Positions 37,248 to 38,960 of a stretch of 64,000 nt of DNA are shown here, piece by piece (positions within the stretch are counted from its first letter, which is position 1; each line of letters starts with the position of its first letter). The notes under the pieces were generated by a model. That model saw only the letters and a program-made list of their open reading frames with translations, ran no database searches and was not told the DNA's origin. The translations under genes were made by a program, and so were the position numbers. This stretch comes from Myxococcales bacterium (lineage in GTDB: Bacteria > Myxococcota > Myxococcia > Myxococcales > Anaeromyxobacteraceae). Where the stretch lies: positions 19,473 through 83,472 of the forward strand of contig JBBQEB010000002.1 in the NCBI GenBank assembly GCA_038320275.1, in the 5' to 3' direction.

Positions 37248-38960
37248 CTACGCCCGCGCCTCGGCCTTGCCCGCCGCACCCTGACTCGCGAGCGCCTGCG
37301 CGGCGAGCGCGTGCTCCCGCATCTCGTGCTCGCGAAGCTCGCCGGCGATGGCCGTGGCGCGCTCCGCCACCTGCACCTGCGACAGGCCGGTCTTCGCATC
37401 GGCCGAGAGCTTCGCCAGGTTGGACGCGATGCGGCGGTGGTCGGCGATGAGCGCGTCCACGCGCTCGGAGGACCCGCGGTGGGCGAGGATGCGGAACACG
37501 CCCTCGTCCCGCTCCTCGCGCTGGAAGTGGCCGGTGAGGAAGCCCCCTAGCTCCTCGATGGCCTTCGCCAGCGCTTGCAGGTCCTTCGCCCCCTTCACCG
37601 CCGAGGTGTAGGCGACGAGGTTGGCGTGATCGGCCTCCATGACGTGGTGCGCCGCCGCGAGGCGGTCGCTGACGGTGAACTGGGCTGCCTCGGTGGACCC
37701 CTCGAGCGCCTTCGTCGAGGCGAGCCCGCCGGTGACGGTCTCGAGCACCGCGTCGAAGTAGCCGGTGCCCACCTCGCGCTGATGGCGCGTCGCGGTGTAG
37801 CCGTTCTTCTCGGCCGCGAACTCCGCCTGCTGCAGCTCGCTGTAGGCAGCCATGCCGCGGTCGCGATACTCGCGGGCGAGCTGGAACATCCCGTAGTTGA
37901 GCGCATGGAATCCGGCCAGCGTGACGAACTGGAACTTGTAGCCCATGGCGCCGAGCTCGCGCTGGAAGCGCGCGATGGCCGCGTCGTCGAGCTTCTTCTT
38001 CCAGTTGAACGACGGCGAGCAGTTGTAGGCGAGCATCTTGCCGGGGAACTTGGCGTGCACGCCCTCGGCGAAGGCCTTGGCCTCGCCGATGTCCGGGAGC
38101 GAGGTCTCGCACCAGATGAGGTCGGAGTAGGGCGCGTAGGCCAGCGCCCGGTGGATCGCGCACTCCACGCCGCCCTTGAGGTAGTAGAATCCCTCCGGCG
38201 TGCGGTCCTTGGAGCGGTCGATGAACTCCGCGTCGTACGGATCGACGTCGCTCATGATGAGCTTCGCGGAGTCGGCGTCGGTGCGGGCGACGAGCACGGT
38301 GGGGACGCCCATCACGTCGGCGGCGAGCCGCGCAGCGGTGAGGGTGCGCAGGAACTGGCTCGTGGGGACGAGCACCTTCCCGCCCAGGTGGCCGCACTTC
38401 TTCTCGCTCGCGACCTGATCCTCGAAGTGGACGCCCGCGGCGCCGGCCTCGATCATCGCCTTCATGAGCTCGTAGGCATTGAGCGGGCCGCCGAAGCCCG
38501 CCTCGGCGTCGGCGACGATGGGCGCGTACCAGTGAACGCCGTCGTCGCCCTCGCCGTGCGCGATCTGGTCGGCGCGCTGGAGGGCGCGGTTGATGCGGCG
38601 GACCACGATGGGCACCGAGTCGGCCGGGTAGAGGCTCTGGTCGGGATAGGTCTGTCCGGCCGAGTTGGCGTCCGCCGCCACCTGCCAGCCGGAGAGGTAG
38701 ATGGCCTTGAGGCCCGCCTTCACCATCTGCACCGCCTGGTTGCCGGTGAGGGCGCCCAGCGCGTGGACGTACGGCTCGCTGTGCAGGAGCTCCCACAGGC
38801 GCAGCGCGCCCGCGCGTGCGAAGGAGTGCTCGACTGGCAGCGTGCCACGGAGCTTGTCGACCTCGGACTGGCCGTAGGTGCGCTTCACGCCCTCCCAGCG
38901 GCGGGCGTCGGGGTGGTGAGGCGCGGGGGCCGCGCTGGCGGTGCTTCCATTGCTGGTCAT
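37248..38960 (-). CDS. aceA: isocitrate lyase with C-terminal hemerythrin-like domain
   Basis: [40 protein letters not shown] (aa 1-428) plus a 142-aa extension with DH, HFQREE, DH, HEMRE. Confidence 0.97.

Follow-up and report, generated by a model that had tools for sequence, protein, structure and literature searches.

A short isocitrate lyase continuing into a hemerythrin-like domain in Anaeromyxobacteraceae, a candidate for redox control of the glyoxylate shunt

Two switches are known at the branch point where isocitrate enters either the TCA cycle or the glyoxylate shunt, namely AceK, which phosphorylates isocitrate dehydrogenase, and the acetyl-CoA activation of the isocitrate lyase (ICL) termed ICL2. 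Protein bundles with the motif H-HxxxE-H-HxxxE bind an oxo-bridged di-iron centre which cycles with O2, H2O2, NO or nitrite, and a five-histidine ligand set is the motif of the O2-binding bacteriohemerythrins. The C-terminal tail of ICL is described as a lid over the active site of the neighbouring subunit (PMC8099091), and in ICL2 of M. tuberculosis the C-terminal domain is reported to activate the enzyme 50-fold (PMC6788997). Both points had been claimed in the sequence-only reading of the present locus, as an active-site-capping role of the ICL terminus and a parallel with ICL2 control by an appended domain, and these sources bear them out. Six M. xanthus proteins are reported to carry the H-HxxxE-H-HxxxE motif, four of which gave di-iron spectra (PMC12753109), and it is also described in plant BTS domains (PMC12022348). 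The commonest known partners of bacteriohemerythrin domains are given as chemoreceptors and GGDEF domains (PMC4919030). Iron limitation reportedly induces the glyoxylate shunt of other bacteria (PMC6618146), and for A. dehalogenans microaerophilic growth and the use of acetate are described (PMC2330069). A malate synthase-ICL fusion of the same species was noted in 2006 (PMC1630690).

The window analysed is a stretch of 64,000 nucleotides from a genome of the Anaeromyxobacteraceae. Translation of its minus strand from 38960 to 37248 gave a single frame of 570 aa with zero internal stops, from ATG to TAG (aceA-Hr gene, protein P0001), and sequence inspection revealed a GGAG element resembling a ribosome-binding site directly 5' of the ATG (38966..38969, minus strand). 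Residues 1-428 (37677..38960, minus strand) make up a short bacterial ICL domain, which matched PF00463 with 345.7 bits and scored above the short bacterial AceA equivalog models of NCBIfam (NF011645, 740.4 against a cut-off of 562; TIGR01346, 569.7 against 275.9). The top Foldseek matches of P0001 were ICLs of about 70% identity, solved short ICLs being 66-72% identical, and the catalytic loop KKCGH (aa 187-191, 38388..38402, minus strand) is invariant in 32/32 aligned rows. The ICL C-terminal tail GSTEAAQF (aa 421-428, 37677..37700, minus strand) forms the last part of the lid segment and marks where the two domains are fused, and its S, T, E, A, Q and F are invariant in 34 aligned rows. No stop follows QF; the frame stays open for a further 142 aa, in which the hemerythrin-like HHE domain, a predicted four-helix bundle, occupies aa 431-550 (37311..37670, minus strand; PF01814, 36.6 bits against a gathering cut-off of 25.3). 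Third-position GC content (GC3) was 0.953 for the ICL part and 0.951 for the tail. The complete short ICL ending in GSTExxQF at aa 428, the read-through of 142 aa with host-like codons, and the pair of Pfam domains proposed from the letters alone were thus all recovered. P0001 is an intact short ICL that continues into a hemerythrin-like domain. Upstream of its ATG only 27 codons are open, and a malate synthase Pfam match is absent from the protein.

The junction was also covered by a contig of sequencing run X1 spanning 37000-37776 with 0 differences; this run may be the source sample of the window, so the contig is not independent evidence. The read-through was proved independently by 36 further family genomes (35 recognised by motif, plus one) and by 2 genomes of another family. 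An assembly read-through was rejected on the X1 contig together with these other genomes. In the RNA runs about 5% of the sequence words were present, mostly from the ICL of other organisms, and the one RNA contig crossing the junction (37645-37844) had 26 differences, which is too weak as evidence of expression.

The predicted di-iron ligands H445, H478, E482, H508, H545 and E549 (37314..37628, minus strand) stand at the positions of the HHE motif read earlier from the sequence, and along with E483, E546, F479 and G487 they are invariant in 35/35 rows, one of which is a duplicate. The full motif was present in 34/34 unique complete tails, so the ligands are conserved, and the tail is predicted to bind two irons. 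Two findings that would have spoken against the sequence-only reading, a stop behind QF and unconserved ligands, were therefore not made. Of two full-length AlphaFold models, the first (8 rows) was poor, with a mean pLDDT of 54.6; the second had a mean of 69.1, with the C-terminal arm of ICL below 50, and due to this low value neither model places the tail domain relative to ICL. The tail itself was modelled as four long helices (pLDDT mostly 78-91 by block), helix 1 beginning about 2 residues past QF. The best solved-structure match of this tail part, taken from the full-length model, was DcrH-Hr (2avk) with Z 13.2 and rmsd 2.8 over 117 aligned residues, a borderline value that helical bundles can reach through their common arrangement. 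Profile search of solved structures gave weak matches only, the best natural one again being DcrH-Hr with E 0.005.

The tail resembles DcrH-Hr in being a terminal domain on a larger protein, whereas it differs from DcrH-Hr and the O2-binding bacteriohemerythrin sensors in lacking the five-His ligand set, since only four His are invariant, and in scoring far under the NCBIfam cut-offs for the canonical O2-carrying class (NF033749, 14.7 against 84; TIGR02481, 18.4 against 51.75). It has the four His and two Glu of YtfE in the same order (H84, H129, E133, H160, H204 and E208 in YtfE; PMC9268430), and an acidic residue precedes H508 as E159 precedes H160 there. Unlike YtfE and other RIC proteins, the tail has shorter spacing and no ScdA_N domain (PF04405), which a Pfam scan did not find in P0001 and did find in a true example, and the profile match to a YtfE-like protein was weak (probability 15.5%). 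Judged by these profiles, the tail domain is neither a canonical O2 carrier nor RIC. It is joined to an enzyme of carbon metabolism, in contrast to YtfE, the M. xanthus MXAN_5531 group, BTS and FBXL5, where the domain is free or on a ligase.

The likeness to YtfE bears on a different explanation, in which the tail would be a di-iron module working on its own as a scavenger of O2, peroxide, NO or nitrite, or as a local iron buffer, with the kinetics of ICL unchanged. Such a module would ride on an acetate-induced gene for co-expression and would shield the catalytic cysteine of ICL or nearby Fe-S enzymes, for example aconitase. YtfE, whose ligand set is the same, is reported to reduce nitrite (PMC9052748) and has been proposed to repair Fe-S enzymes (PMC9268430), and the acidic residue before H508 adds to the match; the absence of the ScdA_N electron-delivery domain from P0001 speaks against it. 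This explanation is considered rather unlikely, and further evidence on it is given below with the family data.

P0001 was searched against 92 genomes of Anaeromyxobacteraceae, and 30 loci and 20 further stretches were read. Among the matches listed, 37 of the 43 short ICLs with a visible C-terminus carry the hemerythrin domain. In 36 of these genomes, the window's included, ST(E)xxQF runs into a ligand-bearing tail (among the matches listed), and in the 37th (L045) the tail stands behind a degenerate ICL. Six genomes keep only a tail remnant of 20-40 aa, and in 2 more the gene ends at a contig edge. By a hand count of the matches listed, 39 family genomes have the long ICL type only (best E 1e-33 to 1e-41); among the matches listed for the 92 genomes, one had an ICL of other origin, three gave weak matches and four gave none. 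Most of the fused genes start with a full malate synthase A, making a malate synthase-ICL-hemerythrin chain of about 1100 aa. Exact look-up found the triple fusions of A. dehalogenans 2CP-C, 2CP-1, strain K, Fw109-5 and A. oryzae under the names malate synthase A or isocitrate lyase, and the four proteins scanned (2CP-C, 2CP-1, Fw109-5, A. oryzae) all had PF01814 above the cut-off. The A. dehalogenans malate synthase-ICL fusion (ABC82768.1, 1111 aa, P0168) falls in the same ICL clade as the window gene and has this PF01814 domain at its C-terminus as well (aa 989-1103, 47.3 bits); unlike it, the window gene lacks the malate synthase part and the adjoining divergent regulator of ScfR/RamB type. 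The triple fusion is family-wide and present in cultured strains, and the window gene is a trimmed version of it.

Across the phylum, 401 sampled genomes were searched with the tail profile, with scores taken for 10 candidates in each, and 38 genomes matched: 30 belong to the family, 2 have triple fusions and come from a different family within the order, and the other 6 matched more distantly, through proteins that, where resolved, were single-domain or not ICLs. When 185,579 species genomes were scanned with one pattern, 27 loci emerged, 25 of them ICL-linked and all of these 25 assigned to Anaeromyxobacter, its family, Myxococcales or delta-proteobacteria. For the tail subfamily there were 2446 library hits; among the best 150 of them, 142 were no longer than 180 aa, which fits a module that works alone. 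The subfamily also occurs N-terminal to a protein of more than 1400 aa with PPDK_N (L140:1056-5313; also P0069 and P0136), a second enzyme of central-carbon type with this hemerythrin domain. One single-domain relative lies directly upstream of an alpha/beta pair of 2-oxoacid:ferredoxin oxidoreductase (L088:320-3628, minus strand), and another (L089) is flanked by a universal stress protein and a protoglobin-PAS kinase.

The ICL and tail parts have diverged at different rates. Over the 496 pairs of 32 rows, the mean identity was 81% for ICL against 42% for the tail (tail minimum 23%). In the 12 closest pairs dN/dS was 0.10-0.44 for the tail against 0.03-0.19 for ICL, and in the next two pairs the tail reached 0.92 and 0.73; such low values in close pairs and higher ones farther out suggest that selection acts mainly on the metal site and core. 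The distance from QF to H445 was exactly 17 residues in 11/32 rows and 22-26 in 21/32. In the tree of 71 tail rows, all 38 fused rows were placed in a single 42-row branch (support 86/81), a result pointing to one ancient fusion with the second family included; four short single-domain rows were nested within this branch, and 4 changes of the label are required. The simplest reading of this tree would be that a widespread single-domain subfamily gave rise to a single old fusion, from which the domain was later released again. The ICL tree placed tail loss on three separate nested branches (6 genomes), and as the ICL of the losers is still 75-80% identical, the tail is dispensable. At L035:2052-2192 a clean in-frame deletion lies inside the hemerythrin domain, with the first and last helix ends kept. 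Most of the conserved tail positions were equally conserved in 133 stand-alone relatives. Only a few were fusion-biased, namely G490 (31/34 against 5/133 stand-alone), A467 (27/34 against 10/133), H484 (24/34 against 5/132) and D444 (33/34 against 38/130), a bias that may reflect ancestry; the window's protein has R at both 490 and 484.

These data bear most directly on the idea that the tail is a passenger without function, either neutral or arising from assembly read-through. Its loss in 6 genomes and its fast divergence outside the ligands would agree with this idea, but the ligands are invariant in 34/34 tails, dN/dS is well below 1 in close pairs, and the tail is present in complete genomes of cultured strains, so that it is close to refuted. 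For a module acting independently of the lyase, the pattern of tail conservation, which is that of the stand-alone relatives, and the single-domain rows nested in the fused branch are favourable; against it stand the retention of the fusion across two families and the linker tightly fixed in 11 rows. The window's genome has 12 PF01814 matches in all, and with the 11 besides P0001 a further free scavenger needs no fusion.

A degenerate member of the family was analysed further. L045:1107-4427 (minus strand) encodes a malate synthase-ICL-hemerythrin protein in a stop-free frame of 1107 codons with GC3 0.97, in which the catalytic motifs are lost (KKCGH to ERRGR, GRWDY to GRASY) and the hemerythrin ligands are intact. 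Invariant positions were changed in 64/259 cases in malate synthase, 78/246 in ICL and 1/15 in the tail; Fisher's test of tail against ICL gave p 0.044, and 0.080 with malate synthase pooled, for this one case. L137 of A. oryzisoli SG63 has the same dead motifs and intact hemerythrin ligands. The single case of L045 fits either an autonomous di-iron module, which it favours by keeping the domain intact on a pseudoenzyme, or a pseudoenzyme turned regulator. Together with the nested single-domain rows it gives some evidence of a hemerythrin role apart from ICL catalysis.

The pseudoenzyme is left unexplained by another alternative, a stability switch of the type of FBXL5 and BRUTUS, in which the iron-free domain would unfold and the enzyme would be degraded or aggregate, so that iron or O2 would set its amount and not its rate. 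The same motif in plant BTS and the stabilisation of FBXL5 by iron binding (PMC12022348) are in line with it, and a terminal domain of this kind needs no docking surface, which fits the low fusion-specific conservation. When iron is limiting, such a switch would also take the shunt away, contrary to the induction described for other bacteria (PMC6618146), and it is regarded as improbable.

The surroundings of the window gene differ from those of its relatives, in which a regulator of ScfR/RamB type usually lies next to the fused gene in divergent orientation. Upstream of the gene the window shows synteny with L101 but has no regulator there, and none of this type was found elsewhere in its genome (90.7% complete). 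At 38961-39165 the regulator of the syntenic L101 is missing and the AT-rich intergenic elements of the relatives look changed; the ICL-Hr gene of the window may be deregulated. No sigma-70 promoter or own-strand terminator was found at the gene. A cation-efflux gene (PF01545, 35886-36836, minus strand) lies about 410 bp downstream on the same strand, was not seen at the relatives' loci and is likely a chance neighbour. This gene and the upstream Gate-domain gene were rejected as parts of the system because the relatives have other downstream genes. Two long ORFs without Pfam match (23192-24709 and 42396-44543; 506 and 716 aa) also lie in the window, and homologues of the former are directly downstream of ICL-Hr in L100 and L101.

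The absence of malate synthase and aceK from the window, claimed in the sequence-only reading, was upheld, as the genome's only such matches are on contigs C15 and C54 and the window is on C2. The genome has AceK elsewhere, and genes of the POR_N and heme-copper oxidase families; AceK was present in 5/5 genomes tested, as were POR_N and heme-copper oxidase family genes. The only malate synthase-family gene of the genome is of a type of about 800 codons with weak Pfam cover (L001:754-3174, contig C15) and close relatives in most of the family, a gene family that looks unstudied. It has an in-frame TAG where 11/11 relatives read have GAG, which would be either a nonsense change or a base-call error; if the TAG is real, the glyoxylate shunt of this strain may be incomplete.

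Many genomes of the family also encode an ICL2 of 748-750 aa including the acetyl-CoA domain (L094:7686-9929, L095, L096), and the alignment of this long ICL to M. tuberculosis ICL2 spans residues 2-747, C-terminal domain included; a C-terminal switch on ICL thus has a precedent in the same cells. Some of these ICL2 genes are within a few kb of a long malate-synthase-like gene. ICL2 was not found in the window's genome, and P0001 is not an ICL2, as it matched ICL2 chains in two pieces only (E about 1e-78) and its tail is PF01814. Like M. tuberculosis ICL2 (6EDW), in which the allosteric switch is established, the window gene has a C-terminal domain appended on the lid tail; unlike ICL2, with its helical insert and GNAT-like acetyl-CoA domain, it is a short ICL with a predicted metal-binding four-helix bundle.

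The placement on the lid tail, the 50-fold precedent of ICL2 and a life between O2 and anoxia led to the choice of redox gating of ICL as the preferred explanation, with a probability of roughly 45%: the hemerythrin tail would be a built-in di-iron redox sensor gating ICL through its lid tail. The H-HxxxE-H-HxxxE centre would sense oxidation state or iron load, upon which helix 1 would move, and from its start about 2 residues past QF in the model this motion would shift the balance between open and closed lid. The rigid metal bundle, 17 or 22-26 residues behind the lid tail, would be placed to load that tail, and the lid so pulled would be the one that closes the neighbouring subunit's active site. 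Ligand conservation is observed, and we infer every step beyond it. As to direction, 2-oxoacid:ferredoxin oxidoreductase is O2-labile, so the acetate route through this enzyme would fail once the cell is exposed to O2 or short of iron; with the shunt then required, ICL would probably be switched on under these conditions.

Redox gating would be favoured by the ligands kept in 34/34 tails against a mean tail identity of 42%, by one apparent old fusion across two families with fixed QF-to-H445 spacing, and by the POR_N and heme-copper oxidase genes of 5/5 genomes along with the iron-linked induction of the shunt elsewhere. Against it would count the three tail losses and the small fusion-specific surface, the tail dN/dS of 0.73-0.92 in more distant pairs, the seemingly dead L045 enzyme with its intact domain, and the single-domain rows nested in the fused branch, as well as the control that AceK already exerts on this branch point in 5/5 genomes tested. 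The wider statement, that the Anaeromyxobacter shunt enzyme, a chain of up to three domains, carries a non-heme di-iron centre whose redox state switches it directly, making it gated by O2 or NO, with the subfamily also on a PPDK-like protein, is slightly more tentative.

A description of the ICL-hemerythrin fusion was not found in the literature searched, which covered few subscription papers. The main text of PMC1630690, in which the malate synthase-ICL fusion was noted, has 0 occurrences of hemerythrin or HHE; the main texts of PMC4919030 and PMC2556348 have no lyase or malate, and the supplements of the former may list the architecture. The main text of PMC2330069 has no hemerythrin, glyoxylate or isocitrate, and that of PMC13768988 has hemerythrin in a reference only. 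Databases already contain the PF01814 match as a precomputed one, so that the architecture is recorded there, though under no name of its own.

The ICL-hemerythrin fusion is real, conserved and uncharacterised, and at the least the finding corrects how a protein is annotated that has been regarded since 2006 as a fusion of two domains. The system is testable, as cultured strains carry the fusion and the window gene is a naturally minimal two-domain form, and the relatives provide natural controls in which the tail is lost (e.g. L035) or the enzyme is dead with the tail intact (L045). If the gating is true, the isocitrate branch point would have a third control in the di-iron switch of ICL, and acetate assimilation would be tied directly to O2, NO or iron in these soil and sediment bacteria living at the oxic-anoxic boundary.
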